64,000 nucleotides of DNA, taken from NCBI GenBank assembly GCA_965219415.1, contig CBDCNP010000002.1:4416001-4480000 (forward strand), given 5' to 3'. Source of the stretch: Candidatus Marinacidobacterales bacterium. Its GTDB lineage: Bacteria; Acidobacteriota; Vicinamibacteria; Marinacidobacterales; DATDRI01. Position 1 is the first letter of the stretch. Every line of letters begins with the position of its first letter. A program made the position numbers and the translations under genes. The notes below the pieces were generated by a model, which did no database searches, had not been told where the DNA came from, and saw nothing but the letters and a program-made list of their open reading frames with translations. This document shows positions 8,629 to 63,265 of the stretch, piece after piece.

Positions 8629-8874
8629 GGTGCTTCCGCCATCAAGTGTTGCTACGCCGTGTTTGAATGCTAGTGTCAGCTGGCCTGCCTGTGTCGGCGA
8701 ACGCCACTAATTAAGGATGTCGGCGTGCACACGAAGGTGTCTCTGAACGTCAGGCACCGTGTGGTCAGCCCAGCCCGCATCGCCGAAAGAACTGCGTCTC
8801 TCGAAATCGGGCCCCAAACTCTAGCACACGAGCGGGTTACGCGGCAGCCACCAACACTTGATTGCGGAAGCACC
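8629..8874. mobile_element. MITE D1 (246 bp) with 22-bp TIR GGTGCTTCCGC(C/A)ATCAAGTGTT
   Basis: TIRs with one mismatch; second copy at 33517-35205 is interrupted by IS110; no target-site duplication seen. Confidence 0.9.
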
Positions 8875-8902
8875 CTTAGCTATAGAATGGGAATGATGAA
8901 TC

Positions 8903-9417
8903 GTGGCGACTAAAAAGCAACTTCCCTACCGTTCAACCAGAAGGCGGACTACACAGGATACAGAAGCCGATGCGAAGAGGCGGAAGTACTTCGAGAAATA
9001 TCTCTATTATCTGGAAGGTCTGGCGGACTACTCCCAAGCCAACCATTCCTACGGAAGCGCCAAGGACGACTATCGTACGTTGGGATGGGCGATAGGGAGA
9101 CAGATTGTTGCGTTCTATCTTATTGAGATGCTCCTTAGGATCGACTACGAACGTCGAGGAATCACTTGTGGCACCGCCACCCACAATCTGGCGCGTCTCT
9201 TCCGCGACCTTCCTAGAGACAGTCGAGATTCCGTCGAGAAAGTCTACAAGCGCATTCTAAACAACGAGGTCGAATGGACTTGGGATATTTGCCGAACTGT
9301 CAAGTCCTTTCTCGACTTCCTGGGCAAGAACCCGATTGCCAAGACCAGATACCCGTGGCAGCAACAGCACGAAGGGACGCTCTTCACACCGAACAGTCTC
9401 CGCCCCCTTATCTACGC
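8903..9417 (+). CDS. HEPN-like protein, C-terminus clipped by the IS-A right end
   Basis: FYLIEMLL...THNLARLF...RYP pattern resembles HEPN domains; ORF 8903-9436 ends inside the IS. Confidence 0.55.
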
Positions 9418-10703
9418 TGTCCATCATCATTATTAATCCGGGACTGGACTCTAGGGCCCGGACCGCCCTCGAGCACATGCTGGAGAGCGTGGTCAGGGCG
9501 CGAGGGAAGGTGCTGAGGACGAACTTCTCGGCGACCAGCCGAGTAACGCGAGCGACCAAGCTGACTCAGGCTGCCTCTAGCCACTCGTATCGATGGTGCA
9601 GTCCACCGACTCGCGGCAGTGCGACTACTTTCGCCGTAGGAGACGGTCGGTGCGTGACCGTTCTCAAGCTCGGTGTGTCCTTGTTCAGCCCCAAGTGGCA
9701 ACGGTCCTCATGATAGTAGCTGATGTAAGCTCGCACGAGCCGGATGAGATGACATGCGCCGAGAACCACCACGTGCTCAAGGAGCTCGCGGCGGCAGCTG
9801 CCGACCCACCGCTCCGCGGTTCCGTTTTGCCATGGGCTGCGAAACGAAGTGCGAACGGGTTTTGTGCCCGTTGCCTTGATGAACTCGATGACCGCAGCGT
9901 TAAAGATGAAGTCGCGATCGAAGATGAGATATCTCGGAGCGGTGTCGTAGGGAAATGCCTCGCGTAGTTGCTGAATAACCCAAGCAGACGTCGGATGGAA
10001 CGTGGCGTTGAAGTGAACGATGTGCCGACGACCGTGCTCGATGACGAAGAAGCCGTACAGCAGCCGGAGCGACGCGGTGGGCACGGTGAACAGATCCATG
10101 GCGACGATATCGTCTTTATGGTTGCGCAAGAAAGCCATCCATCGTTTCAGCTGGTCGGGCTCCGCGGGACGCCGCGGCAGGTATCGCGACACCGTAATCT
10201 CGGAGATGATGAAACCGAGCTTGGTGAGCTCAGCATGGATGCGTGGCGCCCCCCAGCCGTCTTGCGCCATCGTGCGGACGAGGCGACGAATCTCGGCATC
10301 AATCCGAGGCCGACCGGGATGGCGGCGCTGCGAGATCTTTGCCCAGTACCGTCGGAATCGGTCGCGATGCCAACGGGCTACGGTGTCCGCGTGGACGATG
10401 AGCAGGCGGCTCGCCCACACGGGCCACGAACCTCGAAGGGCAACCCAGAAAACCCGTTCCGTGTCGTCGAGCGGTGGGCGTGGGCGCTCTTTCTTCAGCG
10501 CCGTCACTTGCTGCCGCAAAGCGACGTTCTCCAACACCAGATCGGCGCGGCGCTGACACATCGCCCGAATGGCACGAACGCCAAGTGAGACGAGGAAGAC
10601 AACAACGTTGAGCATAGCGGCGGAGTTTCGCCGTCTTCGGCCCGGAATTCAAGCGGAGCGTAAGTCCTTGATTTCGTGGGCGGAGCAGTTTTGACGATGC
10701 ACA
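9418..10703 (-). mobile_element. IS-A full copy (about 1286 bp), imperfect TIR TGTGCATCGTCA / TGTCCATCATCA
   Basis: Both ends present, intact transposase; flanks unrelated, no TSD. Confidence 0.95.
9566..10615 (-). CDS. rve integrase-core (DDE) transposase, 349 aa
   Basis: WGAPRIHAEL HTH, DLFTV, FDRD, PWQNGTAERWV, GGLHHRY; IS3/IS481-related integrase core. Confidence 0.93.
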   Translation of the reverse strand: MLNVVVFLVSLGVRAIRAMCQRRADLVLENVALRQQVTALKKERPRPPLDDTERVFWVALRGSWPVWASRLLIVHADTVARWHRDRFRRYWAKISQRRHPGRPRIDAEIRRLVRTMAQDGWGAPRIHAELTKLGFIISEITVSRYLPRRPAEPDQLKRWMAFLRNHKDDIVAMDLFTVPTASLRLLYGFFVIEHGRRHIVHFNATFHPTSAWVIQQLREAFPYDTAPRYLIFDRDFIFNAAVIEFIKATGTKPVRTSFRSPWQNGTAERWVGSCRRELLEHVVVLGACHLIRLVRAYISYYHEDRCHLGLNKDTPSLRTVTHRPSPTAKVVALPRVGGLHHRYEWLEAA

Positions 10704-10953
10704 CCGTTCCGTGTCGTCGAGCGGTGGGCGTGGGCGCTCTTTCTTCAGCGCCGTCACTTGCTGCCGCAAAGCGACGTTCTCCAACACCAGGTCGGCGCGG
10801 CGCCGACACATCGCCCGAATGACACGGACGCCAAGTGAGACGAGGAAGACAACAACGTCGAGCATAGCGGCGGAGTTTCGCCGTCTTCGGCCCGGAATTC
10901 AAGCGGAGCGTAAGTCCTTGATTGCGTGGGCGGAGCAGTTTTGACGATGCACA
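10704..10953 (-). mobile_element. IS-A left-end stub in tandem with the full copy
   Basis: Repeats the first 250 bp of IS-A directly upstream of the full copy. Confidence 0.92.
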
Positions 10954-11177
10954 CTAGCACGCGAACAGGTTACACGGCGGCCGCCAACACTTGACTGCGG
11001 AAGCACCCATCGGTGCATCGGTTGCGTGTCCTTCATCGTTAATTATTATCGGCACCCTGAGCATCAGCGGGGGAACCGTCCGGCGCAGCGGGCTTCTGGT
11101 CAGGCTCCATCGTTGTCCTCCGCCGTGATTCGGCCACGGGTGCTCCGCGATAGGCGGGGCGCACACGGACTCTACGC
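10954..11177. repeat. Linker: partial H module, D end, 4-bp spacer CATC, G module
   Basis: Matches the corresponding parts of 42383-42676 and 52153-52446. Confidence 0.9.
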
Positions 11178-11325
11178 CGTCCTTGTGCCAAAACTCGGCC
11201 CTTTTGAAATAAACCACAAATCAGCAGCTTAGACGCTCTTGGAATCCGCGCAGAATCCAGGGTATTTCGCGCCGCAGGGCTGACTTCCGACCCATGGGCT
11301 GGCGGATGAATAAATAGAAGGCACA
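11178..11325 (+). mobile_element. Hybrid MITE A-C (about 148 bp)
   Basis: Starts with the A end and finishes with the reverse complement of the C end; copies at 11638, 40558, 60576 and a partial copy at 60837. Confidence 0.9.
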
Positions 11326-11637
11326 CCTGACGTCGATGCCTTGAGCGTCCGATAGTGTTCACCGCGTGAACAATGTTCTCGTTCGGGTTTGCTCGGACGT
11401 CCGCAACCTTGGTCGGCATGGAGGAAAACCACTAAACTATTACTTCTTCCCGGTCTTCTTCGCGGCGTTAAGTTGTTGTATAATCTTGCTGACTCGATTC
11501 ATGTCGCCGCCGCCGATCGCCCGTATGTTGCGGATCGGCACCTTCTCGATGCCGAGTATGGTAATGAGGAGGTTCTCCAGAATCTTCGCCTCGTCGGATT
11601 TGCGCTTTGCCTTCTTCTTTTGCGCCGCTTTCTTCCC

Positions 11638-11786
11638 CGTCCTGTGCCAAAACTCGGCCCTTTTGAAATAGACCACAAATCAGCAGCTTAGACGCCCTTG
11701 GAATCCGCGCAGAATCCAGGGTATTTCGCGCCGCAGGGCTGACTTCCGACCCATGGGGCTGGGCGGATGAATAAATAGAAGGCACA
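11638..11786 (+). mobile_element. Hybrid MITE A-C, direct repeat enclosing a 312-bp insert
   Basis: Near-identical to 11178-11325; the insert holds the 3' end of one small ORF and the 5' end of the next. Confidence 0.9.
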
Positions 11787-12821: not shown

Positions 12822-12971
12822 TGTGCCTTCTACTTATTCATCCGCGCGCACCGAACTTGATTAGTCTCCAGTCTGCCGGCATCATGCCTGCATGATTTCA
12901 TCGTTTGTTCGCGCTCTCATCTCTGCCTTCAAGGCTCGTCCCGAGCTAGCTCTCGAGAGTGTCGCTCTTCG
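12822..12971 (+). mobile_element. IS-C left-end stub (C end plus start of an rve transposase)
   Basis: MISSFVRALISAFKARPELALE, homologous to the IS-A N-terminus; similar stubs at 28975, 36381 and 56630. Confidence 0.85.
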
Positions 12972-13169
12972 CACGTCTGGAGATTCAGGGTTTAGTCCGG
13001 CATCTGCTGGTAGCCGCTACGGCTCCATTCGCTTTTTCAGACACGACGGGCTCTGGAATGACCCGGTATAGTGTGGGCGGCTCTCGGCCAGTGGTCTCGG
13101 TGAGTTTCGGCTTGGGCGAGGCCCCCCATACCCACCCTTGCCCGTTTTTCCACGAAATCGAGGTGCGTA

Positions 13170-14957
13170 ATGGAGATTCGGAACCTCAACCAGCTTCTCT
13201 CGAACGCGGCGAAGAAGTACGACAAGCCGGACGCCCTCCTGTACAAGAAGAAGGGGGAGTGGCGGCGGATCTCCTCGCGCGAGCTCATCGAAAAGGCAGG
13301 CAACTTGGCACTCGGGCTGAACGGCCTGGGTATCGGCCGGGGCGACAAGGTCACTCTCCTCTCGGAGAACCGCCACGAGTGGTTCATTATCGATGCCTCC
13401 CTCCAGATCCTGGGCGCGGTCAACGTGCCGATCTACGCGACGCTCCCGCCTCCTCAGATCACCTACATCGTCTCGAACTCCGAGTCGAAGGTCGTTATCG
13501 CCTCGACCGCCGACCAGCAAAAGAAAATCGCCGCCATCCGTTCGGACCTCCCTTCGGTCGGACACTACATCACTATCGATCCGCCGACGGACGGCTACCA
13601 GGCGCTCACCCTTGACGAGGTGATGAAACAGGGCCAAGAGAACCGGAGGGCAAAACCCGATCTCGTCGGCGAGCTATCGGATGCGGTCGACTCCGACGAT
13701 CTCGCCAGCATCATCTATACGTCGGGAACGACCGGAGATCCGAAGGGCGTCATGCTCACCCACCGCAACCTGCTCTCGAACGTTGCGGCCAGCCAGAAGG
13801 CGCTCCCGGTCGAGGACACGGACGTTGCGCTCTCGGTGCTTCCCTATAGCCATGTCTTCGAGCGCATGGTGGCGCATTACCTGTACGCCAACGGGGGTGC
13901 CACCGTGGCGCTCGCGGAGGGCCAGGAGAAACTCCTGGAGAACCTCGGTGAGATCCGCCCTACCATCATGACGATGGTGCCTCGGTTCTACGAGAAGGTC
14001 TACGCCGGTGTGATGGAGAAAGTCGCTGCGGGGAGCGCGCTGAAGCAGAAGATCTTTCACTGGGCGGTCGCGATCGGACGCGAGCACGGGAAGTACCGGC
14101 AACGCGGCGAGCCGGCCCCGGCGCTCCTGAACGTCAAATACGCGCTCGCCTCCAGGCTCGCTTTCGCAAAGCTGCACGCCCGCGTCGGCGGCCGGCTGCG
14201 GTTCTTCATCTCGGGCGCGGCCCCGCTCGCGAGAGAGTTCGCAGAGTTCTTCTGGGCGGCGGGGCTGCAGATCCTGGAGGGCTATGGGCTGACGGAAACC
14301 TCGCCGGTCATCTCCGTCAACCGTCCCGATGCCTTCAAGTTCGGGACGGTAGGACAGCCCGTCGAGGGAGTCGAGGTCAGGATCGCGAAGGATGGAGAGA
14401 TCCTGGTCCGTGGGCCCAACGTCATGAAGGGCTACTACAAGAACGAGGCAGCCACTCGAGAGGCCATTGACGAGGACGACTTCTTCCATACCGGTGACGT
14501 AGGGGTTCTCGACTCAGACGGGTTTCTTGCCATCACCGACCGCAAGAAGGACCTCATCGTTACCGCGGGAGGCAAGAACATCGCTCCCCAGCCCATCGAG
14601 GGCCGCGTCAAGACGAACGCTTACATTGCGGAGTTCGTCCTGGTGGGCAACAAGCGGAAGTTCCCGGCAGCGATCGTGGTGCCTGATTTCGAGAAGCTCG
14701 GTGCCTGGTGCAAGGAGCAATCCATCGACGCCTCCGACCGGAACTCGATGACCGGTCATCCCGATGTGATCGCTTTCATGGAGAGCCAAGTACAGTCGAT
14801 GACCTCGCACCTCGCGCAGTTCGAGAAGATCAAGAAGATCACCCTGATAGCAACGGAATTCACTCTGGAGGGCGGGGAGCTGACGCCGACGCTCAAGGTG
14901 AAACGAAAGGTTATCGAGGCCCGTTACAAGGACGTCATCGATCGGATGTACGAGTGA
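13170..14957 (+). CDS. fadD: Long-chain fatty acid-CoA ligase
   Basis: IIYTSGTTGDPKG, EGYGLTETSP, FHTGDVG, DRKKDLIVTAGGKNIAP, ELTPTLKVKR. Confidence 0.92.
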   Translation: MEIRNLNQLLSNAAKKYDKPDALLYKKKGEWRRISSRELIEKAGNLALGLNGLGIGRGDKVTLLSENRHEWFIIDASLQILGAVNVPIYATLPPPQITYIVSNSESKVVIASTADQQKKIAAIRSDLPSVGHYITIDPPTDGYQALTLDEVMKQGQENRRAKPDLVGELSDAVDSDDLASIIYTSGTTGDPKGVMLTHRNLLSNVAASQKALPVEDTDVALSVLPYSHVFERMVAHYLYANGGATVALAEGQEKLLENLGEIRPTIMTMVPRFYEKVYAGVMEKVAAGSALKQKIFHWAVAIGREHGKYRQRGEPAPALLNVKYALASRLAFAKLHARVGGRLRFFISGAAPLAREFAEFFWAAGLQILEGYGLTETSPVISVNRPDAFKFGTVGQPVEGVEVRIAKDGEILVRGPNVMKGYYKNEAATREAIDEDDFFHTGDVGVLDSDGFLAITDRKKDLIVTAGGKNIAPQPIEGRVKTNAYIAEFVLVGNKRKFPAAIVVPDFEKLGAWCKEQSIDASDRNSMTGHPDVIAFMESQVQSMTSHLAQFEKIKKITLIATEFTLEGGELTPTLKVKRKVIEARYKDVIDRMYE

Positions 14958-14959
14958 CG

Positions 14960-15028
14960 ATGTCCGGCTACGAGACCGTCATCGGCCTCGAGCTCCACGC
15001 TCAGCTCAGGACAGAGACCAAGCTTTTC
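14960..15028 (+). pseudogene. gatB: 5' stub of Asp/Glu-tRNA amidotransferase subunit B
   Basis: MSGYETVIGLELHAQLRTETKLF is the characteristic GatB N-terminus; similarity stops abruptly. Confidence 0.85.
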
Positions 15029-15066
15029 TGAGGGGTTTACGTGAAGAAGAAACTGGCGATTCCCGC

Positions 15067-15422
15067 TGTGCATCGTCAAAACTGCTCCGCCCACGAAATC
15101 AAGGACTTACGCTCCGCTTGAATTCCGGGCCGAAGACGGCGAAACTCCGCCGTTATGCTCGACGTTGTTGTCTTCCTCGTCTCACTTGGCGTCCGTGTCA
15201 TTCGGGCGATGTGTCGGCGCCGCGCCGACCTGGTGTTGGAGAACGTCGCTTTGCGGCAGCAAGTGACGGCGCTGAAGAAAGAGCGCCCACGCCCACCGCT
15301 CGAAGACACGGAACGGGCTTTCTGGGTTGCTCTTCGAGGTTCGTGGCCCGTGTGGGCGAGCCGCCTGCTCATCGTCCACGCGGACACCGTGGCCCGTTGG
15401 CATCGCGACCGATTCCGACGGT
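15067..15422 (+). mobile_element. IS-A left-end stub in tandem with the full copy
   Basis: First 356 bp of IS-A, abutting the full copy. Confidence 0.92.
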
Positions 15423-16708
15423 TGTGCATCGGTCAAAACTGCTCCGCCCACGAAATCAAGGACTTACGCTCCGCTTGAATTCCGGGCCGAAGACGGCGAA
15501 ACTCCGCCGTTATGCTCAACGTTGTTGTCTTCCTCGTCTCACTTGGCGTCCGTGTCATTCGGGCGATGTGTCGGCGCCGCGCCGACCTGGTGTTGGAGAA
15601 CGTCGCTTTGCGGCAGCAAGTGACGGCGCTGAAGAAAGAGCGCCCACGCCCACCGCTCGAAGACACGGAACGGGCTTTCTGGGTTGCTCTTCGAGGTTCG
15701 TGGCCCGTGTGGGCGAGCCGCCTGCTCATCGTCCACGCGGACACCGTGGCCCGTTGGCATCGCGACCGATTCCGACGGTACTGGGCAAAGATCTCGCAGC
15801 GCCGCCATCCCGGTCGGCCTCGGATTGATGCCGAGATTCGCCGCCTCGTCCGCACGATGGCGCAAGACGGCTGGGGGGCGCCACGCATCCATGCTGAGCT
15901 CACCAAACTCGGTTTCATCATCTCCGAGATTACGGTGTCGCGATACCTGCCGCGGCGTCCCGCGGAGCCCGACCAGCTGAAGCGATGGATGGCTTTCTTG
16001 CGCAACCATAAAGACGATATCGCCGCCATGGATCTGTTCACCGTGCCCACCGCGTCGCTCCGGCTGCTGTACGGCTTCTTCGTCATCGAGCACGGCCGTC
16101 GGCACATCGTTCACTTCAACGCCACCTTCCACCCGACGTCTGCTTGGGTTATTCAGCAACTGCGTGAGGTGTTTCCCTACGACACCGCTCCGAAATATCT
16201 CATCTTCGATCGCGACTTCATCTTTAGCGCTGCGGTCATCGAGTTCATCAAGGCAACGGGCACAAAACCCGTTCGCACTTCGTTTCGCAGCCCATGGCAA
16301 AACGGAACCGCGGAGCGGTGGGTCGGCAGCTGCCGTCGCGAGCTCCTTGAGCACGTCGTGGTTCTCGGCGCATGTCATCTCATCCGGCTCGTGCGAGCTT
16401 ACATCAGCTACTATCATGAGGACCGTTGCCACTTGGGGCTGAACAAGGACACACCGAGCTTGAGAGCGGTCACGCACCGACCGTCTCCTACGGCGAAAGT
16501 CGTCGCGCTGCCTCGAGTCGGTGGACTGCACCATCGATACGAGTGGCGAGAGGCAGCCTGAGTCAGCTTGGTCGCTCGCGCTACTCGGCTGGTCGCCGAG
16601 AAGTTCGTCCTCAGAACCTTCCCTCGCGCGCTGACCACGCTCTCCAGCATGAGCTCGAGGGCAGTCCGGGCCTAGAGTCCAGTCCCGGACAAATAATGAT
16701 GATGGACA
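15423..16708 (+). mobile_element. IS-A full copy
   Basis: Both TGT...ACA ends; right end abuts the interior of an A module (CCATAAATCAGCAGCTTAG). Confidence 0.95.
15512..16561 (+). CDS. rve integrase-core transposase, 349 aa
   Basis: Near-identical to 9566-10615. Confidence 0.93.
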   Translation: MLNVVVFLVSLGVRVIRAMCRRRADLVLENVALRQQVTALKKERPRPPLEDTERAFWVALRGSWPVWASRLLIVHADTVARWHRDRFRRYWAKISQRRHPGRPRIDAEIRRLVRTMAQDGWGAPRIHAELTKLGFIISEITVSRYLPRRPAEPDQLKRWMAFLRNHKDDIAAMDLFTVPTASLRLLYGFFVIEHGRRHIVHFNATFHPTSAWVIQQLREVFPYDTAPKYLIFDRDFIFSAAVIEFIKATGTKPVRTSFRSPWQNGTAERWVGSCRRELLEHVVVLGACHLIRLVRAYISYYHEDRCHLGLNKDTPSLRAVTHRPSPTAKVVALPRVGGLHHRYEWREAA

Positions 16709-16887
16709 CCATAAATCAGCAGCTTAGTGTCTGTGTTTGAGATTCTTGAGTGCGCCTGCAGGCCCCGGTGGTCCGCGCCCCCTGGACCGAGCTCTCGCGG
16801 CACTTTCAGACAGCATAGCATCGCAGCTTTGCTCGATAGGAGCGGATCGGACTCAAGCAGTGCGTCGAGTGTAATCGAGGATAGAGA

Positions 16888-19134: not shown

Positions 19135-19158
19135 CTCTCACAGAACGCCAGGCTTGCA

Positions 19159-47858: not shown

Positions 47859-49511
<1,653 letters not shown>

Positions 49512-52083: not shown

Positions 52084-52152
52084 CTAGACGGTGCTTTCGT
52101 CATCAGGTGTTGTTAAGCGGCTGCCGGCATGGCAGGATGCCGGGAGAGACCG

Positions 52153-53049
52153 CGTCCTGTGCCAAAACTCGGCCCAGCCGGCATTGACGAAAGAACTGCG
52201 CCTCTCGAAATCAGGCTAAAATTCTAGCACGCGAACAGGTTACGCGGCGGCCGCCAACACTTGACTGCGGAAGCACCCATCGGTGCATCGGTTGCGTGAC
52301 CTTCATCATTATTGTGGTCGGCACCCTGAGCATCAGCGGGGGAACCGTCCAGCGCAGCGGGCTTCTGGTCAGGCTCCATCGTTGTCCTCCGCCGTGATTC
52401 GGCCACGGGTGCTCCGCGATAGGCGGGGCGGACACGGACTCTATGCAGTCGGACGCGGATGCCCGAACTCGTCTACTGGATGACCCGCCGCCAATAGCGC
52501 CTTCTGAATACTCCGCAGAACATCGGGTGCTTTCAGCATTTCGCTACTAAAGTGAGGATTGGAGGGGAGCACCAAGTCGCATACACGTCCATTTTTATCC
52601 AGTTTGTAGAATATGACAGTGGCTTGTCGGTGCTTCCGCCATTAAGTGTTGGTGAGATGACGCTAAGACTTTACGCTGCATTAAATTACAGCCAAAATAG
52701 AGCTCACGACCTTCGCCGCGCGCTAAATGGAGCGTAAGCGTGTTTTTTGCAAAGGGATACGTACATATCACCAACAGCAAACAGCGCAAGCACCGGACGG
52801 TGTTTCCCAGCGCGTACGGGGGAACCCGAATCGCCGCCTGCGGGGCGCACTCAAGAACCTCAAACACAGACACTAAGCTGCTGATTTATGGTCTATTTCA
52901 AAAGGGCCGAGTTTTGGCACAGGACGGGGAACCCGAATCGCCGACATCGCCTCCGACACACCCCAGAACTGGGGCTCGCCACAAGTCGATGACGATCGAA
53001 ACGGCCCGGCGCGCCAGTCTTGAGTTCGTTTGTGTTTTTGGACAGGACG
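52153..53049. repeat. Linker cluster: H (52153-52277), G (52282-52446), reverse D2 (52629-52794), reverse A (to 52926), reverse E (to 53049)
   Basis: Matches other copies in the window. Confidence 0.88.
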
Positions 53050-53175: not shown

Positions 53176-53244
53176 AATGGCACCGCCCGCGTGGGCGGAG
53201 GTCATCGGGGAGTGACCGAAATCGTTCGTTCACTCGAAAGTACC
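53168..53244. repeat. 78-bp two-hairpin repeat, copy 2
   Basis: Near-identical to 46894-46971. Confidence 0.85.
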
Positions 53245-53439
53245 CAGGTGCGTGGCGGCCGCCACGGTCGGATGACTTTCCGTGGCGTGCTGACGCGCGA
53301 TACTGCCGTGCCGCTCGCTGGTCCGACAGAAATCCTTTAGAGTATTTACGTAACGTCTACTGGGCGAGACTTCACGGGCCGGGATCTGTTGGGGCCGCAT
53401 CGCCTCCCGTAGACCACGCCATCGATCGGAGAACGACAC

Positions 53440-54855: not shown

Positions 54856-54962
54856 GGCTAGGCAACATCTGATTTTCCGGTATTGACCACGTTGGCCGCT
54901 GGCTGTTGTGATCCGCAAAAAAGAAAACCGGCCAGAAGCAGCCGACTATGGTAGGTCTAACC

Positions 54963-55160
54963 CGTCCTGTGCCAAAACTCGGCCCAGCCGGCATTGACGA
55001 AAGAACTGCGCCTCTCGAAATCAGGCTAAGACTCTAGCACGCGAACAGGTTACGCGGCGGTCGCCAAACACTTGACTGCGGAAGCACCCTAAATGGATCG
55101 TAAGCGCTTTTTTTGCAAAGGGATACGTACACATCACCAACAGCAAACAGCGCAAGCACC
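54963..55160. repeat. H module (54963-55088) abutting a partial reverse D2
   Basis: Matches other copies in the window. Confidence 0.88.
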
Positions 55161-55253
55161 CAGTGGTCTGGGAAAGCCCCGGGCCGCGGCTCCACCCCTA
55201 CCCGGGGGCGTCCACTGGGACAACCCCGGAAGGGGACGAATACAATGTTTCCG

Positions 55254-55913
55254 CTACTTCGGTTGGGGAACGATCCGGATGTAGGGTAGCGGCGACTGCC
55301 AACCGGCAGGATACTTCTTCTTGGCCTCGTCGTCGGACACGGCTGGAACAATGATCACGTCGTTGCCCTGTTTCCAATTGACCGGTGTTGCCACCTTGTG
55401 GGTCGCTGTGAGTTGGCAGGAGTCTAGGAGGCGGAGGATCTCATCGAAGTTGCGGCCCGTGCTCATCGGGTAAGTCAAGGTCGCCTTGATCTTCTTATCG
55501 GGACCGATGATAAACACGGACCGGGCCGTCGCGTTGTCCGCCGCCGTCCTTCCGGTGGAGGTGTCGCCCTCGTCCGCCGGCAGCATGTCGTAGAGCTTGA
55601 CGACCTTCAGTTCTGGATCCCCGATCAGCGGATAGTTGATCGCGTGTCCCTGGGATGCCTCGATTTCCTTCGACCACCTCTTGTGGTCGCTGACCCCATC
55701 GACGCTGATGCCGAGAACCTTGCAGTTGCGCTTTTCGAACTCAGGCTTGAGCCCCGCCATATAGCCGAGTTCCGTCGTGCAGACCGGCGTGAAGTCCTTT
55801 GGATGCGAGAACAAGATGGCCCAACCTTCGCCAATCCAATCATGAAAGTTGACCGTCCCTTCTGTCGTTTCTGCGTTAAAGTTCGGCGCTTCGTCATTGA
55901 TTCTGAGCGTCAT
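55254..55913 (-). CDS. 1-Cys peroxiredoxin (Prx6)
   Basis: FSHPKDFTPVCTTELG, YPMSTGRNFDEI, ATPVNW; GGAGGG RBS before ATG 55913. Confidence 0.96.
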   Translation of the reverse strand: MTLRINDEAPNFNAETTEGTVNFHDWIGEGWAILFSHPKDFTPVCTTELGYMAGLKPEFEKRNCKVLGISVDGVSDHKRWSKEIEASQGHAINYPLIGDPELKVVKLYDMLPADEGDTSTGRTAADNATARSVFIIGPDKKIKATLTYPMSTGRNFDEILRLLDSCQLTATHKVATPVNWKQGNDVIIVPAVSDDEAKKKYPAGWQSPLPYIRIVPQPK

Positions 55914-56273
55914 AATTCCCTCCAGAGCATGTGAACGACCCGTTAACCGGTTTGAATGTGAAAAATCTAAGGCGATGACCGTTGTTGAAATACTCGATTC
56001 AACTCGGCTCCCAAGACAGTTCCCTTCTGAAGACTCGACAGACCTGGGTAGCCCGGAACTGCCAAGAGAGAGTTCGTCCCCAAGGTGCTTAGTCTCAGAT
56101 CCCAAACGCTATGAAGTACGGTTGCACGCTTAAATGCTACTCAGTTTCAACGGGTCGGACAAGTGCAATCGCGCGTCGGGTGCAGAAGGAGCACACTTTC
56201 TTAATTATTGGGATGTGTCCCGAGGTCCGTGGAAAAAGAACGGCACCCTCCACTCCGTCATCAGAGTATCATA

Positions 56274-56608
56274 TCAGGCGGCAACCTCCGCGTGTTCGAG
56301 AACCTCGCTCAGACGTTGGTAGCCGTCGATGCGTCGTAGTTGAATCTGGCCAGAGGCGATAAGCCCAAACAGCAAAGCGACCGCAGACTCCTCGCTGGAG
56401 AACGACGCTTGGGTTTTCGTCCGGCGTCGAAACTCGCGGTTGAGATTCTCCAGAGCTTTGGTCGTTCGAAACGGTTTCCACATGGCACGAGGGAATTCGT
56501 AGAAGGTCAGCAGCTGATTACCGGCCTCCTCTAGGCTTCGGACGACGGCCGGCGCGAGAGGCGTCCACTTGGCGACGAGCTCGTCATAGGCTTTGCGAGC
56601 ATCGATCC
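56274..56608 (-). pseudogene. IS256-family transposase 3' fragment
   Basis: LLTFYEFP...RTTKALENLNREFRRRTK; cut by an A end. Confidence 0.82.
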
Positions 56609-56937
56609 CGTCCTGTGCCAAAACCCGGCTGTGCCTTCTATTTATTCATCCGGGCGCCCCAAACTTGATTAGTCTCCGGTCTGCCGGCACCATGCCTGCT
56701 TGATTTCGTCGTTTGTTCGCGCTCTCATCTCCGCCTTCAAGGCTCGTCGCGAGCTGGCTCTCGACAATGTCGCTATTCGGCAACAGCTCGCCGTCCTCCG
56801 CCGTTCGGTGAAACGGCCGCGGCTCTCGAACGTCGACCGCGGGTTTTGGGTAACTGTAGAGCCTAAGGGCCCTTGGCCCAGTCGCTAAGCTGCTGATTTA
56901 TGGTCTATTTCAAAAGGGCCGAGTTTTGGCACAGGAC
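56609..56937. repeat. 21-bp A stub, IS-C stub (from 56630), reverse A
   Basis: Matches other copies in the window. Confidence 0.88.
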
Positions 56938-57010
56938 TGGGTGAACCCCGACGCCCTGAAAGACGATGTCCGTCCCGTCACCCACTGGGACAAGCGGTGA
57001 GACATTCACC

Positions 57011-59635
57011 TCATCTGGAGTGCGGCGCCTCAGGCGGTGCGAGGATCGTGTTGAACAATAGGTCAAACGTGCCGACGCTCAGCCAACGGTGAACGGGGTT
57101 GAACGCGAACATCACGAGTTTGCCTCGTCCGATGGGCGCTTCGATGATCGCCGGCGCGCCTCGAAGTGGCACGGCATTGTCGGCAAGCCCAGATAACCAC
57201 GTTTCGTTTTCCGCGAAGCGGAGCAGCACAGAGGCGCTGCCGCCTTCCATCACCGAGAACACCGGGGCCTTGGCGAAAAAAACTGCCAGCTCTCGAGAGT
57301 AGCCGTCCGTCGTCGGCCGGCGGTCGTCGACAACCTCCGCGCTCAATATCGATCCGGGGACGAGAAGCCCCGGTGGGTCGACGATCGCGACATCGGGTAC
57401 CAACCCATAGTCCACCGGAACTCGACACGCCGATCCAATGGTAACGAGAGTCCCGCCGTCTCTCACAAACGTCTCGAGATTCTCCACTCCCACCAGACCC
57501 ATCCCGCCCGTGATGTCTTCGGAGGAATCGTAGTCGCCCATGAAACGAAACCGCGCCGTCCTAGCGTAGGCGAGCGGTCCGTACTTTCGGTCCAACCCGG
57601 CCACGATGGCTTCGCCATCGCCTCTCCCGGCGGGACTCGCCGGAGCGAAAACGAGCGCGTCGAAGTCTTTCGCCAATCCTCCGCGTCGCAATCTCTCTTC
57701 GTTGACTAGCTCATAGCGAACCCCCAGTGTATCCAGCGTGAACCGGAGCCAACCGGTGTCCTGTGTATATCTCCAGGTGTAGACGAGTCCGACACGCGGT
57801 GAGCCAGCTTCTTCGAAGCGACGCTTCAAGGCCTTCGTCTCCGTGTAGCCGTTCGGTACCTCCGTCACCACCGGCTCCATCGCGGCGTTCAAAATGGCTT
57901 GGTCCCGCACTTCCATCGTGCGGACGCCGTACATGAGGCCAAGTGTCCAGGCGGTGTCGTCATAGGAAGGGGGGGCGTTCTTCGGATATTTCTGAATCTC
58001 GAACAGGGTCTGGATGAAGTTCCGGTAAGGCTGGTCCATGCGGACGACGTAGGAACCCCGAGGCAAGCGTGCCTCACCCGCGCCGACCGCTTCCACGCTC
58101 GCTCCGCCATCGACGCCGCTCGTATCCACTACCGACGCCAACGTCATTTCGGCAGTCAGTCGGTGGACCTCGATCCCGTGGCGACGAACGAGGTTGACCA
58201 GCGAGGTGGCCCGTGCGTCAGCGTCTCGATGCCCAACGCTCCCCTGCCCCGAGGGGACTACCCATGCGTAAGGTGGCTCGGTCCTCCCCCGATGAAGGGA
58301 GTTGGAGCTCTTTTTCCAGAAGTTCTCGAGTAGCGTCTCGGGGTGACGGGCAACCAGATCCAATGCGCTCAACACCGCAGTCTGTTGGTAATTGATACTG
58401 TTCCGATGGGACCATTCGACTTCCCGGTAGGGTGGGACCGGCCGAAACCACTCCCGACTGAGACGGTTCGCGTACGTCCGGGTGTGATTGAAAATAGATA
58501 GAATCGGCTCGGTGAGCTCGCGTCTCATCGTGCTGGCCCCCGCATTGCCGAAGGATTGATGGAAGCGGCCTGCCGCATTTCGATTGACCGCGATCCAAGC
58601 TACGTACCCCGGGTACCAAGCCTGCGCGAAGTCATACACCCAAACGCCGGGCATACCCCAGCGATTCATTTGAGCTAGCTCGTAATGAGCCAACCACGAT
58701 AGCTCCGTTTCGTAGATGGGGCCGTAGTTAGGATAGTTCGGTCCGGTTCCGGTGAAGATGTAGAGAAACGGCAAGGACTCGTGGAAGTCGTCTATCACCT
58801 GAGGGTGGAAACTGTCGAAGAGCTCGAGCAAGGCACGGGTCGCCGGCTGGGAAAGAACGATGCCGTCCCGGTTCGTGTCGTGGTAGAGATACTTGCTCCA
58901 GTAGGGCGAGGCCGGTTTCCACTGCGTCTGATCGGTAATGTCGATCAGGTGACGCGAGTACCAATCGGCATATCGATCGCGCCCGTCGGGCTCGAAGACT
59001 GGCAGAATGAGAACGATCACTTCGTGACGAATCCGCTCGAGTGTCGGATCATCGCTGACCGCCAAGCGGTACGCCAGCTCCATCATCATTTCGGGGCTCG
59101 CGGTCTCCGCCCCCTGAACCGCTCCCATCACCGCGTAGATGGGTTTTCCTTCTCGAACGATGTCCGCGGACCGTGCCTCGGAGGTTAGTCTAGGGTCTGC
59201 GAGCGCGGCGGTCATGGATTTGTATTTCTCGATTTGCCGGATGTTCTCTTCCGAGCTGACGGCGAGCGCGATGATGCGGCGTCCTTCGCTCGATGTCCCG
59301 ATGAAGAATGAATCGACTCGCGCAGATTTTTCAGCCAGCGCTTCCATATAACGAACGATGTCCGCGTAGTAGGTCATCTTGCCAGGCTGACCTACGGTGT
59401 AACCGAGAACCTCTCGCGGCGGTGGTACGCCATCGATGGACGCGGGCAAGGGATCGACGAGCGGAGAGAGGAACTCCGGGCGCGTCGTATAGCTACGAAT
59501 CGCCCTCGTCCCCTCCTCGTCGACGCCCGCACGTTGGGAGGGCGCGGACTCTGCGGTCAAACCCGAAATCACCGAGACCAGGCATGCGATTGTAGTGCAA
59601 CGCGGCAGGGTTCCCATGTCCCAACCGTATATCAT
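57011..59635 (-). CDS. M14 zinc carboxypeptidase-family protein with C-terminal GATase-like domain
   Basis: IGTSSEGR, ELAYRL, PDGRD, HDTNRD, DFHES, YDDTAWTL. Confidence 0.85.
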   Translation of the reverse strand: MIYGWDMGTLPRCTTIACLVSVISGLTAESAPSQRAGVDEEGTRAIRSYTTRPEFLSPLVDPLPASIDGVPPPREVLGYTVGQPGKMTYYADIVRYMEALAEKSARVDSFFIGTSSEGRRIIALAVSSEENIRQIEKYKSMTAALADPRLTSEARSADIVREGKPIYAVMGAVQGAETASPEMMMELAYRLAVSDDPTLERIRHEVIVLILPVFEPDGRDRYADWYSRHLIDITDQTQWKPASPYWSKYLYHDTNRDGIVLSQPATRALLELFDSFHPQVIDDFHESLPFLYIFTGTGPNYPNYGPIYETELSWLAHYELAQMNRWGMPGVWVYDFAQAWYPGYVAWIAVNRNAAGRFHQSFGNAGASTMRRELTEPILSIFNHTRTYANRLSREWFRPVPPYREVEWSHRNSINYQQTAVLSALDLVARHPETLLENFWKKSSNSLHRGRTEPPYAWVVPSGQGSVGHRDADARATSLVNLVRRHGIEVHRLTAEMTLASVVDTSGVDGGASVEAVGAGEARLPRGSYVVRMDQPYRNFIQTLFEIQKYPKNAPPSYDDTAWTLGLMYGVRTMEVRDQAILNAAMEPVVTEVPNGYTETKALKRRFEEAGSPRVGLVYTWRYTQDTGWLRFTLDTLGVRYELVNEERLRRGGLAKDFDALVFAPASPAGRGDGEAIVAGLDRKYGPLAYARTARFRFMGDYDSSEDITGGMGLVGVENLETFVRDGGTLVTIGSACRVPVDYGLVPDVAIVDPPGLLVPGSILSAEVVDDRRPTTDGYSRELAVFFAKAPVFSVMEGGSASVLLRFAENETWLSGLADNAVPLRGAPAIIEAPIGRGKLVMFAFNPVHRWLSVGTFDLLFNTILAPPEAPHSR

Positions 59636-59708
59636 GGCGGCGAGCAGCTTGCGATTGCAGGAGCTCCGTTGGCAAAAAGCCGTCGAATTAAGGTAGATTC
59701 TCGCGGAG

Positions 59709-60422
59709 ATGAAAACAGCAAAATCAACGCTTCATATCGCGGAGGGAGGCTTCCTCGCTCGCCCCGAAAAAAAGGCCGACTCGGACCAGCGGGATGCAGA
59801 GATAAGGCCCTACGCCGCCCAGCAGCCCGGCTTCGTCGAAACCTATGGCGGTTCCATTACCGGTACCGACTGGGGCTTTTTCACTGCCAAGTTTCGGAGT
59901 CTGCAAGACATGGAACACTGGCAAGCGGACCGAACACATAACGATGTGCAAGACGAAGCGAGGGATTCGTTTTGGTACGCCTACTACGTTCGCAAAGGAC
60001 GCTTGCTATCAGCGGCCGAGACCGCCGAGGGGAAGCTCCTGTGCGAGGCGGTGTTGCTCCGCGACCAGCCGCTGAGTCCCGAGGAACATAACGTTGCCAA
60101 CGCGGCGGCCGTGGAGACTTCTCGATTCGGCGTTCTGCCGTACGAGACGCTGAGAGGTTCCCCCATCCCCACGCCCTACGTATTCACCGGCCCGGTGGGC
60201 GTCTTACCCCAGGCCGCGCCGGTGCAATACGTCTTGCTTACCTACTGGGAGAAAACCGAGGCCAGTGCCGCATGGCAAGAGTCCCCGGCGTTCCAACACT
60301 TCGAACAGCTCGGCCAAGTCTCAACCTCGCTTTACGTGCTAATTCCAGAAAGACAACCTCGCATGGGACTTCTTCCCGACCGTTTGCAGCGGGAGTGGGT
60401 CGCACCGGATGCGCCCATTTGA
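59709..60422 (+). CDS. Dimeric alpha-beta barrel (ABM-like) protein
   Basis: AQQPGFV...FRSLQDMEHW...H...WYAYY, and a second TYWE...AWQESPAF repeat. Confidence 0.6.
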   Translation: MKTAKSTLHIAEGGFLARPEKKADSDQRDAEIRPYAAQQPGFVETYGGSITGTDWGFFTAKFRSLQDMEHWQADRTHNDVQDEARDSFWYAYYVRKGRLLSAAETAEGKLLCEAVLLRDQPLSPEEHNVANAAAVETSRFGVLPYETLRGSPIPTPYVFTGPVGVLPQAAPVQYVLLTYWEKTEASAAWQESPAFQHFEQLGQVSTSLYVLIPERQPRMGLLPDRLQREWVAPDAPI

Positions 60423-60458
60423 TGCCCGAAGGACGCCGGGCTAGCCCCGTCACCAGAA

Positions 60459-60575
60459 ATGTCCAGCCAGCCCCGCAAGCCCCGTAAGATTGTCGGCGTC
60501 GACGTGGGCGGTACGTTTACCGATCTCGTGTGGATGGAAGAGGCGGGAGAGGACGTACGCGTGGCGAAGGTACCC
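60459..60575 (+). pseudogene. 5' stub of hydantoinase A/5-oxoprolinase
   Basis: IVGVDVGGTFTDLV...VAKVP, then the A end. Confidence 0.88.
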
Positions 60576-61024
60576 CGTCCTGTGCCAAAACTCGGCCTTT
60601 TAGAAATAGACCACAAATCAGCAGCTTAGACGCCCTTGGAATCCGCGCAGAATCCAGGGTATTTCGCGCCGCAGGGCTGACTTCCGACCCATGGGCTGAC
60701 GGATGAATAAATAGAAGGCACAGCGCGAGGATGGGGGGACCGCCTAATGGAATAACTAAATTATGTCTAAACATAAAAAATAATGTGTTTACAGTAGTTT
60801 AACTGGACACTATAATTCAGCGTTGCGCGGGTTCCTACGCCCTTGGGAATCCGCGCAGAATCCAGGGTATTTCGCGCCGCAGGGCTGACTTCCGACCCAT
60901 GGGGCTGGCGGATGAATAAATAGAAGGCACAACCGCTTCCATTGGCCAACCAAGCGTAGACACCTCTAATCCGAAACGTCCCGGCGCTACGGTCTTGAGT
61001 TCGTTTGTGTTTTTGGACACGACG
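60576..61024. repeat. MITE A-C (60576-60722), AT-rich insert, partial A-C (60837-60931), reverse E (to 61024)
   Basis: Matches other copies in the window. Confidence 0.88.
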
Positions 61025-61398
61025 GCCTTCGGTGCCAAGTCAGCAGGGTTTCCGGTGTGACGATACCGGCGACTTCTGCTAACAGTTTCGGGACATTGTT
61101 GTGATTTCCTACGCGGACGGATCGATCGACCAGCAGGAAATGGATTGCCTCGTTTGGCTCTGCGAGAACGTCGGAGTCAACCCGCGGTTTATCCAGCAGA
61201 TCCTCACTAGCGCGGCCCGCGGCGTGGATTAGTGTTCTTCGACTCGGATCTTCAGGACGGCGAGCGTTGTGGCCGATCCGTCGGGCCCTTGTGATGATGC
61301 TAAGATCATCCCGTTATGCCCAGTGCGCTGGTAGACGCGGCTGCGGGGAAAGCCGTCTGAAAGCCACCTTATCGGTTCAAGGTAGGATGGCGTGACCG

Positions 61399-63031
61399 AT
61401 GACGAACGTTCCTACAGTCGTTGCCCATGCGGACTGGAGCATTTTACCGGTGAAGCGCTGGGTAGCGACAGCGCACCTCCGGGGCGACGGCTACGTCGCC
61501 GATGCGCCCCGCTCCGTCGGCGACGCCCGGCGATTGATCGCGTCCTTGGTGCCCTCGCCCTCAGCGACCATCCTCGCGGGATTTGATTTTCCCATTGGCG
61601 TACCCACCGCTTATGCACGGGTAGCCGGTGTCCGACACTTCCGCGCTCTCCTCGACGGCCTCGGCGCACCGCCGTGGGATGAGTTCGCCAAGCCGGCCCG
61701 CGTCGCTGCCGAGATCTCCCTCCTCCGCCCCTTCTACCCAGAGGGTAACGGCAGGGGGGCCCGCAAGGATGACCTCGTCGAGGCCTTCCGCGCGACCCGC
61801 TGGAAGGACCTGCTGCGAGAGTGTGACCGTGGTCAGTTGGGCCGTCCGGCAGCCGAATGCCTGTTCTGGACCCTCGGTCCCAAGCAGGTCGGGCGCGCCA
61901 CTCTGTCGGGATGGACGGAGGTGCTGCGACCCGCCCTCGCCGAAGGCGCGAGGCTCTGGCCGTTCGATGGTGCCCTTGAGAAGCTGCTGCAAGAAGCTGG
62001 CTGCGTGGTCGCTGAGACGTACCCCGCCGACGCCGTTCGACTCCTTAACTTGGAGCTACCTAGCCCGAGGGGCGGAAAGCGGGACTCGAGGTACCGACAG
62101 CGAGTCGGGCGCTCGCTCGTCACGACCGCGGAAACCGACAAAGCCGTCCGCCTATCCCCGGCGTTGCGCGAGGTGTTGCTCGACGGTTTCGGTCCGGACC
62201 CGAACGGTGAGGATCCGTTCGATGCGGTCATTGGCCTGCTGGCGATGTTGGAGGTTGTCCTCGAAAGACGCCCCGACGGGGCACCCTTGTCGGCAGCCGT
62301 GCGTGAGGTCGAGGGATGGATGCTCGGCTACGTCGTTCCGGAATCGGCGCATGCAACCGACAAGACCAGCGTGCCGCCGGAACCGGCGTCCCGCGACTGG
62401 CCGCTCCCGGAGCTCTTACCCGCGCGTCTAACCGGCGCCGAGCCCGTCATCGACGATGGCCGCCCGGTGCCTAGGCTCACCGTGCTCGACTTCTGGCGAT
62501 GGGCCGCATCGGATCTCGCAGACAACGTCGTGCGGGGTTGGTTCGCCGAGTTCATCGTGGGCTGCGGCCCTTGGCACCCACGACGGCGTTCGGCAGTCCT
62601 GGGACACCGTCGACGTGAAAACGAAAGCAGGCAAGACGATCCAGGTCAAGTGCTCCGCGTATCTGCAGTCGTGGGCCCAGAAGGAACTTTCCCAAGTTAA
62701 CTTCTCCGTCAAGCCTACCCGCGCCTGGGATCAAGAGACCGGCACCAGGGAGGATCGGGCGGGCAGGCACGCGGACGTCTACGTCTTCGTGCACCAGAAG
62801 CACATGGACAAGGCAACGCTCGACCCCCTTGACCTCACCCAGTTGGACTTCTATGTTGTCCCGACGGCGGTCGTCGAGGCGCGCTGGCCCCGGGCGGCTG
62901 CGCGTGTCGCTGGCCGCCGTGCGCGAGGCGGCCTGTCCAATCCGATACGCCGAGCTCCGGCGTGGGATAGAAGCACTCTAGGTCGACACTTGTTCGAACG
63001 ACGAAACGCCAAAATGCCCTGGGAAGGGTGA
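61399..63031 (+). CDS. DUF429 (RNase H-like) domain fused to a PD-(D/E)xK-like nuclease domain, frameshift near 62560
   Basis: HADWS, GFDFPIG, LWPFDG, AETYP, DPFDA; then DFWRWAASDL..NVVRG.FAEFIV / WDTVDV...IQVKCSAYLQSW, ADVYVF. Confidence 0.75.
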
Positions 63032-63079
63032 CAACCTCCTGAACGCGGCGCGCATCGAGACGGGCATGCTGTCGGTGCC

Positions 63080-63202
63080 CGTCGTGTCCAAATAAACAAA
63101 CGAACTCAAGGCCCTTGCGCCGCCTTGGCCCGGTCGCAAACATAGACACTAAGCTGCTGATTTATGGTCTATTTCAAAGGGGCCGAGTTTTGGCACAGGA
63201 CG
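63080..63202. mobile_element. Hybrid MITE E-A (123 bp)
   Basis: E end and reverse A end as imperfect TIRs; shorter relative of 29161-29329. Confidence 0.88.
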
Positions 63203-63265
63203 GGGGAGACATTTCCGATCGGCTCCAAGAGTCGTTGCGTGTGGTGCTTCCGCCATTAAGTGTTG

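Follow-up and report, generated by a model that had tools for sequence, protein, structure and literature searches.

Integron cassettes are mostly promoterless and lie co-oriented behind a common promoter. Among insertion sequences (IS), elements of the IS256 family normally make target-site duplications (TSDs) of 8-9 bp, and those of the IS481 family make TSDs of 4-15 bp. Genomes saturated with IS and with transposable elements of the miniature inverted-repeat type (MITEs), among host-associated or bloom-forming bacteria, include those of Orientia, Wolbachia, Amoebophilus and Microcystis. We analyzed a stretch of 64,000 nucleotides (the window) from a Candidatus Marinacidobacterales bacterium (assembly GCA_965219415.1, contig CBDCNP010000002.1), in which gene-sized blocks are separated by short units built from transposon ends. 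An earlier note, made from the sequence of the window, had read positions 8629-63265 as an integron-like depot in which a DDE integrase captures, trims and reshuffles cassettes. We find that the window is probably an ordinary slice of very large IS/MITE accretion islands, which occupy about 2.7 of the 8.05 Mb of the genome. Sequence comparisons indicate that the cargo of these islands is copied and shared between genomes, and that it comes from more than one donor.

The source genome (G000) is a metagenome-type assembly of 8.05 Mb in three contigs (C1-C3), with 59% G+C and an estimated completeness of 96% and contamination of 8.45%; the window is C3:4416001-4480000. Six end types (X, Y, Y', Z and both ends of an IS that encodes a 349-aa protein) were counted by pattern searches. 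The window holds 65 such termini, and all except one (64/65) fall inside 8629-63275. With high-copy defined as 24-mers present at least 10 times in G000, 40 high-copy intervals occupy 25% of the window, and of the 39 blocks that they separate, 23 are 0.3-9.3 kb long. The earlier tally of about 60 modular ends and more than 20 gene-sized cargo blocks is therefore borne out, and its four end types were an undercount, as at least six were found. The short repeats that divide the window reach about 400 copies in G000, as judged by a repeat finder and by BLAST of the window against the genome.

The ends are not spread evenly over the genome. When all six types were mapped, 1653 of 1664 termini fell in 272 of 804 10-kb bins (2.72 Mb), so that island bins, 34% of G000, hold 99% of the termini. 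This answers the earlier proposal that a genome-wide count would show whether the ends are confined to islands. X ends number 2 on C1, 36 on C2 and 518 on C3, and Y ends 2, 26 and 435, respectively. Across C1 (2.07 Mb) and the first 1.8 Mb of C3 both are nearly missing, whereas the remainder of C3 and the start of C2 are rich in them. Island runs are 30-890 kb long, and the window belongs to the largest (C3:4.12-5.01 Mb). In island stretches, roughly 20% of 24-mers are high-copy and roughly 25% low-copy.

The ends stem from at least four IS lineages, three of them IS481-like rve elements (X, Z and the 349-aa IS) and one of them IS256 (Y/Y'). The X end begins CCCGTCCTGTGCC... or CCCGTCCTGTGCCAAAACTC... 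and is the terminus of an element of about 1430 bp with inverted ends of about 100 bp. An intact copy of this element (X-IS) lies outside the window and encodes a 356-aa transposase with helix-turn-helix (HTH) and rve_3 domains; the window has a truncated copy only. The 349-aa IS is a second rve element, distinct from X-IS, with ends TGT...ACA. Pfam found rve_3 in both proteins and HTH_21/HTH_32 in the X-IS protein only. Against NCBIfam models the X-IS and 349-aa proteins scored 97 and 80 bits, respectively, for IS481 (cut-off 224) and 84 and 82 bits for IS3 (cut-off 160); because these scores fall under the curated cut-offs, the two proteins are read as divergent relatives of IS481/IS3. The Z end begins TGTGCCTTCTATTT... 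and, read by eye, appears to be the end of a third IS481-like rve element, the sequence that follows it at 36381 reading like a transposase N-terminus. The Y and Y' ends, which begin GGTGCTT..., are the right and left ends, respectively, of an IS256-family element whose 431-aa protein scored 220.7 bits against transpos_IS256 (cut-off 150) and matches Pfam Transposase_mut. By megablast of the genome, the window copy of this element is the only full-length one, and about 31 copies in G000 are partial or divergent. No IS6-family transposase was found among the five transposases scanned; the sole IS6 match, of 20 bits, was a side match of the IS256 protein. Sequences of IS110, IS5, an IS3-type orfB and a group II intron fragment also occur in the window.

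Most linkers are complete small units and not debris: a 166-bp Y'/Y unit, a 248-bp Y/Y unit, 186- and 319-bp X/X units, a 156-bp X/Z unit and a 135-bp X/Y unit. If a MITE is taken to be a short, noncoding, high-copy unit with the ends of an autonomous element, the 166-bp unit, which consists of two ends of the IS256 element, is a MITE, as is the 319-bp unit, which carries X-IS ends. The classical definition, inverted ends of one element flanked by a TSD, does not describe the islands, in which the commonest units are X-Z (about 119 copies) and X-Y (about 137 copies) and TSDs are lacking. The two ends of the X-Y unit derive from unrelated transposase families. The elements that supply linkers and ends in the window are as follows.

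8629-8876, no strand assigned: 248-bp MITE with Y ends on both sides, termini at 8629 (+) and 8852 (-); about 40 genome copies; no TSD
9418-10953, minus strand: 349-aa IS481-like element, copy 1; ORF (open reading frame) 9566-10615(-) intact, rve_3 by Pfam; left-end segment tandemly duplicated with a 250-bp period (10454-10954)
11170-11325, plus strand: 156-bp X/Z unit, about 119 genome copies; also at 11631-11786, 40552-40706 and 60569-60723
15068-16713, plus strand: 349-aa IS481-like element, copy 2; ORF 15512-16561(+); right end adjoins the interior of an X element; left-end segment tandemly duplicated with a 357-bp period (15075-15731)
26004-27834, no strand assigned: X-end remnant, IS3-type orfB (26080-26895, minus strand) and truncated X-IS (26904-27834, plus strand), which retains only the 280-aa N-terminal part of the transposase; Pfam rve/HTH_21 and HTH_32
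27835-28003, no strand assigned: 166-169-bp MITE of the IS256-family element, Y' left and Y right; second copy at 29506-29675; 138 complete copies in G000, none with a TSD
36381-36602, plus strand: Z-element left-end fragment (end type C of the earlier note); other copies at 12822, 28975 and 56630
36636-36767, plus strand: 135-bp X/Y unit, about 137 genome copies; also at 42377-42508, 52147-52278 and 54957-55088
42676-42994, no strand assigned: 319-bp X-X MITE; no TSD
46686-46871, no strand assigned: 186-bp X-X MITE, X termini at 46688 (+) and 46851 (-); right terminus adjoins the HSP20-groEL module
49951-51587, plus strand: IS256-family element with intact 431-aa transposase (50174-51469), Y' left and Y right; no TSD

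The two intact 349-aa rve transposases described previously are both present as ORFs, with the rve_3 match scored on the 9566-10615 copy. Of the two positions given as left ends of rve elements, 26906 stands, the left end of the truncated X-IS being at 26905, and 36381 is a Z end whose likeness to a transposase gene was judged by eye. Paired copies of the 349-aa IS elsewhere in the genome range in length from 1379 to 2073 bp.

Complete elements were probed for TSDs by comparing the n bases immediately before each element with the n bases immediately after it (n=2-12). No signal was seen at any n, whether in the 166-bp MITE (138 copies), the X elements (34) or the 248-bp Y MITE (20 copies). Flank identity at the true termini of these 192 complete elements was 0.19-0.29, which is chance; for the 138 IS256-derived MITEs it was 0.28 at 8 nt and 0.27 at 9 nt. 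The earlier observation that complete MITEs lack TSDs, made on the copies checked, holds genome-wide. The full-length IS256 copy (49951-51587) has no TSD either, nor was one found in any of six paired copies of the 349-aa IS. When the X termini were shifted, seeming signals at inward offsets proved to be the element's own conserved bases. Other IS types in G000 do have TSDs of 8-11 bp: a scan of the genome's own duplicates for filled versus empty sites gave 22 cases, and several of those inspected by eye belong to such types.

TSD partners could be hidden on separate copies after inversion-type intramolecular transposition or recombination. When 660 Y/Y' and 530 X termini were searched for such partners across copies, matches were no more frequent than in shifted controls, and this explanation was rejected as the main process. 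The sole exception was 42 pairs from Y ends adjoining X ends at one 8-mer, TCCTGTGC. Y termini lie at this 8-mer within X ends at, for example, locus L117 (G026) and C3:4857952, and the 8-mer may be a preferred Y insertion point within X ends and the origin of the X-Y units. We also rejected the outer CCCGTCC of X as half of a palindromic target resembling repetitive extragenic palindromes, since only 5 empty 12-mers were found genome-wide, compared with 1 for a control palindrome. The outermost bases of X termini are variably conserved, with an outward preference for ACC/GGT-like letters, and at a minimum of five junctions of known native sequence the site where an X terminus meets captured DNA is GGG(T)/ACCC. 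There is only one abutted X-X junction in G000.

The blocks between the linkers were annotated by a Pfam scan of 55 window ORFs, together with NCBIfam and PADLOC. Blocks that bear on copying and exchange are listed here.

12822-15030, plus strand: Z-end fragment and acyl-CoA synthetase-like gene (13170-14957; Pfam AMP-binding)
36768-38004, plus strand: gene with GmrSD_C and Excalibur domains (36881-37837; Pfam)
46872-49564, plus strand: HSP20-groEL module (Pfam); HSP20 broken by a stop codon, groEL intact (549 aa)
53239-54964, no strand assigned: SNF-type transporter block (Pfam), 99.8% copy at C3:4882509
55135-56340, no strand assigned: 1-Cys peroxiredoxin block (Pfam), 98.8% copy at C3:4178096
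56936-60575, no strand assigned: core-derived segment with an M14 peptidase-like gene and an ABM-domain gene, matching C1:675982-679621

Many window blocks have one to five more copies at 88-99.97% identity, nearly all in other island stretches and with unrelated flanks. The 12822-15030 block, for example, has a 98.9% copy at C3:3578156-3580365, with unrelated flanks. Genome-wide, 460 directional low-copy matches reduce to 278 unique pairs (187 island-island, 48 core-island and 43 core-core). Copied-block boundaries lie within 20 bp of an X/Y terminus in 69 of 744 cases (9%), compared with a control mean of 10.4 (1.4%), and at a step from low to high copy number in 112 of 744, compared with 20.2 in controls. 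A cruder test, which asked only for high-copy sequence outside the boundary, gave no enrichment (149/744; control mean 139.5). The idea that copied blocks always end at repeats was not supported: enrichment at termini is clear, yet most boundaries lie elsewhere or are ragged.

The 3.64-kb M14 block (56936-60575) is the clearest case of copying, being 99.97% identical to C1:675982-679621. On C1 it continues into neighboring coding sequence on both sides, and its edges there carry no repeat; in the window, X termini abut both edges, and 2-4 nt at each junction can be assigned to either partner. Because the C1 copy continues into adjacent coding sequence, the direction of copying was, by this sequence criterion, from core to island. 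Other copies of core DNA in G000 are likewise bordered on an edge by an X or Y terminus, with 1-4 shared nt, and some of their ends are truncated: one Y end is cut at 21 nt, and X ends lack the last 4-7 nt. Some of these truncated ends would not be products expected of transposase chemistry. A composite geometry, with the same element on both sides, was found for some blocks only, among them the M14 block and copies of the groEL module.

The left X|M14 junction recurs in G002, which belongs to the same genus, on contig C8. There a Y terminus interrupts the X end at 43 bp, the right side of the block lacks 92 bp, and G002's own M14 ortholog is only 84% identical. G002:C8 is the closest related island contig; it shares pieces of 1-4 kb with the window, in a different order, so the comparison of cargo order that had been proposed shows, for this contig, that order is not conserved. 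Three segments of G002:C8 (L118-L120), one of which is the M14 block, are about 99% identical to the G000 core, and X ends lie at the edges of the other two. Either G002:C8 comes from a strain like G000 and was mis-binned, or there has been movement of island DNA from one species to another; under both readings the junctions occur in two distinct structures.

The HSP20-groEL module was probed for second copies, as had been suggested. G000 has three more modules at 95-98% identity, in addition to a native groEL on C1 that is 76% identical to the module groEL. Six genomes of family f2 (G008, G014, G018, G022, G026 and G034) hold a further 13 copies at 94-96%. Ordinary groEL orthologs in the order are 72-82% identical to the module groEL, and in G007 the sole match to the module is the native groEL, at 75%. 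The nearest matches of the window GroEL protein are in metagenome-assembled genomes named as Acidobacteria/Acidobacteriota and Vicinamibacterales, at up to 81% identity; as the gene is mobile cargo, it places its host only tentatively below the phylum. At one G022 locus and in G008 (same genus), the flanks of the module are conserved between both species and no element ends lie nearby; this locus looks like the native home of the module, and only in this genus of the other family does its context look native. Elsewhere an X terminus adjoins the left side of the module at one shared junction. On the right, X left ends lie just past the terminator (four copies) or 93 bp further (three copies), and four other copies continue further into other sequence. 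X ends at three differing distances beyond the terminator are a sign of cargo trimming. In a promoter-proximal position (46916-46980), the window module also carries about 66 bp of additional sequence that contains a GC-rich palindrome and is absent from the copies at L112 and L113.

Linkers and other cargo are shared in the same manner. The 319-bp MITE has matches in 12 of 40 relatives, in seven of which it is full-length, across two families; full-length copies from G000 and these relatives, taken together, are 94-100% identical. None was found in the 16 genomes of a third family, whose genomes are small. In relatives with matches, the MITE is again clustered along the chromosome. In the island of genome G001, a stretch of 2691 bp next to an X-IS is 100% identical to G000, against 86% for the core flank that adjoins it. 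The peroxiredoxin block has 98-99% copies in G003 and G014, and the GmrSD unit with its flanking ends (36639-38085) is found at 96-99% in G002, G003, G018, G026 and G034. The earlier proposal that gene-sized DNA is captured, trimmed and reshuffled from several donors is sustained by the core-derived M14 copy, the groEL module and the differing order of blocks. Beside the peroxiredoxin block is a 404-bp repeat (56211-56614) with about 46 copies in G000; it has dozens of 96-99% matches in G003 and G034, the most of any part of the query.

We favor the following account of how the islands were built. Elements of several lineages would insert where insertion is tolerated, and breaks or strand transfers at their termini would then be joined illegitimately to other DNA; microhomology-assisted end joining, adjacent deletion and end joining of transposase-made breaks are the likely routes. 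Such joining would strip flanks, truncate ends and fuse the ends of different elements into chimeric linkers. Cargo would be pared down to the borders of genes that selection still maintains, a stretch of the sister chromosome or of foreign DNA would be captured from time to time, and recombination among more than 1600 end copies, with transfer between co-occurring relatives, would spread the pieces. Five pairs of an end and a gene boundary (16931/16951, 29675/29705, 31098/31127, 42995/43002 and 51587/51607) had been quoted before and agree with the ORF list and the termini; if a genome is compact, those insertions and deletions that survive should halt near gene ends. Illegitimate joining is favored by the like behavior of at least three unrelated end types, by truncated-end junctions, by the short shared letters and by the variably conserved outer X bases, and genes for Ku and LigD_N are present in G000. 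The anatomy of the islands, the confinement of the ends, the copying and the sharing between genomes are shown by the sequences, whereas the joining chemistry is our inference; we only tentatively regard end joining or deletion at termini as the main route. Several observations weigh against it. The total lack of TSDs is the least explained fact and is hard to ascribe to secondary loss alone; no X or Y unit is among the 22 filled-versus-empty cases, and simple insertion was never directly seen. Y termini are exact, with first bases 96-99% conserved, which fits enzyme-precise joining better than resected end joining. The two commonest units pair ends of different lineages, and no known transposase should move such heterologous-ended units whole. 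Between 85 and 91% of copied-block boundaries are away from recognised termini. Island bins, 34% of the genome, contain 16 of its 49 transfer RNA genes, which is no depletion, so the islands carry, or interleave with, ordinary genes and are not pure junk. Lastly, the contamination estimate raises the question of an assembly artefact, to which we return below. Part of this is predicted by a dedicated, terminus-specific capture, in which transposases would join single X, Y or Z ends, or cargo circles with one end, without target duplication. The process would resemble the conservative targeted movement of IS26 translocatable units and, loosely, integron cassette insertion, and the islands would be true gene depots. 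The lack of TSDs, the exact Y termini and the abundant mixed-lineage units are what single-end, duplication-free joining predicts. In line with it, TSDs were found in 0 of 192 complete elements with no hidden partners, units with a single X end are the most abundant, X termini have their outward preference and, in at least five junctions, their GGG(T)/ACCC sites, new DNA appears only where ends are already present, and identical X|cargo junctions travel between genomes. At least three unrelated end types behaving alike nevertheless point to a general process rather than one enzyme, and the truncated X and Y ends, the mixed orientations, the many copied-block boundaries away from termini and the single abutted X-X junction also speak against dedicated capture, which is the main rival account and which we consider unlikely. 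Equally doubtful is its specific form, in which X, Y and Z ends would each be a substrate for IS26-like or one-ended transfer at GGG(T)/ACCC-like sites. If it were true, DNA beside one end could be copied and re-inserted beside another; this would explain the mixed-lineage units of more than 100 copies, the lack of TSDs, accretion only at existing ends, and the presence of core genes (the M14 block and the chaperonin module) as multi-copy cargo circulating between genera and families, and would amount to a community-wide gene depot run by DDE transposon ends. The single DDE-integrase-driven cassette system proposed earlier does not agree with linkers from several unrelated IS lineages, or with the 9% of boundaries that lie at X/Y termini, and an integron-like dedicated machine is not needed to explain the islands.

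The account based on illegitimate joining presumes that the junctions are real. An assembler could have joined several strains or species via shared repeats, with island contigs then binned wrongly, and the 8.45% contamination estimate agrees with this, as does G002:C8, whose roughly 99% identity to the G000 core, set against 84% for G002's own M14 ortholog, suits mis-binning. The reads examined were short-read contigs of four public runs, which break at repeats and for which depth is one figure per contig. On that measure the depth of the M14 block is about equal to that of neighboring unique DNA and not twofold, and no short-read contig bridges an X|cargo junction by at least 31 nt; one crosses the right M14 junction by 22 nt, below this criterion. 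A read joint that skips 56937-60572 has repeats on both sides and flanks of 20-25 nt, and is not assignable to the M14 locus. The SNF and peroxiredoxin blocks have about 10 times the short-read depth of the window's unique DNA and the X end more than 1000 times, values that, we stress, are not copy numbers; they agree with many carriers. Runs labelled 'sponge metagenome' held small shares of the window only, and one of them gave short contigs on its unique parts at a depth of 2-4. Repeats are absent from the edges of the M14 block on C1, so the X|cargo junctions cannot result from a misjoin through repeats. A second assembly (G002:C8) has the same X|M14 junction in a different surrounding structure, the same X|groEL junction is found in several genomes, and linkers of 135-320 bp would be far below typical long-read length. 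Recurring junctions argue against random chimeras, with the reservation that the assemblies concerned are perhaps not independent samples, and we judge an artefact of assembly or binning to be improbable. The remaining alternative is in-situ decay of a host-associated bacterium by IS, acting on its own fixed, single-copy genes without import or copying. It would account for the many IS families and for the broken genes, namely the split permease, the HSP20 gene with its stop codon and a phage protease fragment; a passage in PMC4453008 describes sponge-associated microbes as rich in transposable insertion elements. The ends are, however, confined to islands, many blocks are multi-copy at 88-99.97%, one block duplicates a core locus, block order differs in the closest island contig, and blocks are 94-100% shared with genomes whose core is 84-86% identical or more distant. 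Plain decay is thus highly improbable, and the form in which it was put before, with fixed, single-copy host cargo, is refuted.

The remaining features of the window are these.

2827-8480, plus strand: type I restriction-modification genes hsdR, hsdM and hsdS, upstream of the region studied (Pfam ResIII/EcoEI_R_C, N6_Mtase and Methylase_S); 4045-6948 has a 93.8% copy at C3:3012147-3015047
16951-20547, minus strand: defense-like pair of a BrxHI-like helicase (727 aa) and a BrxD-like ATPase (462 aa), PADLOC 229 and 52 bits; single copy in G000, with an X terminus about 20 bp from the stop codon
20825-21919, plus strand: IS5-family element with a 320-aa transposase (transpos_IS5_2, 255 bits, cut-off 140); three more genome copies
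23181-24610, plus strand: broken amino-acid permease, two overlapping frames matching the N- and C-terminal halves of AA_permease (Pfam)
33517-35206, plus strand: IS110-family element between Y ends (termini at 33517 (+) and 35183 (-)), with a 358-aa transposase (33573-34649; transpos_IS110, 303 bits); about 30 genome copies
39264-39400, minus strand: group II intron fragment, domains D1-D4 (Rfam RF02003, 120 bits, gathering score 49)

Cargo ORFs lie on both strands in roughly equal numbers, and several window ORFs match no family. Further cargo encodes an HNH effector-like nuclease, a PIN protein, an EVE protein, an M4 peptidase, Dps, a racemase and an amidohydrolase. The Asp/Glu racemase block (28013-28802) has five more island copies at 97-98% and a 71% copy on C1, and is a candidate for another captured and amplified host gene. 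The nesting of the IS110 element between Y ends suggests that Y elements are its target; some IS110/IS1111 members target the ends of other transposons. The group II intron fragment lies inside a low-copy block, of which other parts of the islands hold copies at 97-99%.

Provided that the junctions are real, one third of the genome forms a compartment in which gene-sized DNA is copied, trimmed and exchanged with relatives, at up to 100% identity; the exchanged DNA includes defense genes and a chaperonin, while the core genomes differ by about 15% or more. Its relics break two textbook rules: TSDs are absent, and the ends of one unit can come from unrelated families. The islands lend themselves naturally to studying how accessory genomes are built jointly by transposon ends, DNA repair and horizontal transfer, and they call for caution when long-read metagenomes are binned and their contamination is estimated.

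The literature searched yielded no account, for Acidobacteriota or for sponge-associated bacteria, of MITE islands that lack TSDs and have mixed ends. For 21 acidobacterial genomes, a survey (PMC8841776) gives 2-231 insertion sequences per genome and islands that make up 3-12% of the genome.

Chromosomal integrons and superintegrons are like the islands in their long arrays of gene-sized units, repeated sites and borders without duplications, in their accessory and defense content and in units shared between species. The analogy drawn by the earlier note nevertheless fails. The genome has 13 matches to the tyrosine recombinase family (PF00589), with none within C3:4416001-4480000, and the domain is found in none of the 55 window ORFs scanned with Pfam, so that no integrase was found next to the array. 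Integrons have one attC-type site in one orientation and co-oriented cassettes, whereas here there are six end types in both orientations, mostly two-ended units and genes on both strands, and many units are fragments of transposons or whole transposons.

Arrays built by IS26 as pseudo-compound transposons and translocatable units are closer in having gene-sized blocks between copies of one element, internal copies without a TSD (as seen here), units added beside existing copies, and growth and reshuffling of the array. They differ in that separators here are mostly 135-320-bp noncoding sequences, IS481-like and IS256-like, and not whole IS6-family elements, and in the mixed orientations, megabase scale and more than 1600 termini. 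In IMU, TIME-COMP and MIC units, pairs of non-autonomous elements bracket a gene, just as X ends bracket the groEL, GmrSD and M14 blocks. Those units move by classical transposition that leaves duplications, whereas none were found here at 192 single elements, the ends of different families occur in one unit, and the bracketing positions vary between copies. In IS-saturated genomes, as in G000, the repeat load is very high, insertions are nested, genes are broken and order is rearranged; the load here differs in being compartmentalised, in lacking TSDs and in consisting of elements and cargo that are near-identical across genera and families. The arms of Streptomyces chromosomes, whose plasticity is driven by the repair of double-strand breaks, are likewise large, dispensable compartments in which end joining gives deletions and ectopic insertions, and Ku and LigD are present here too; in G000, by contrast, the junctions are at transposon termini and the compartments are internal islands within contigs. 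Set beside these systems, the islands are IS/MITE-built plasticity islands that are unusual in their absence of TSDs, their mixed-end units, their megabase scale and their sharing across families.

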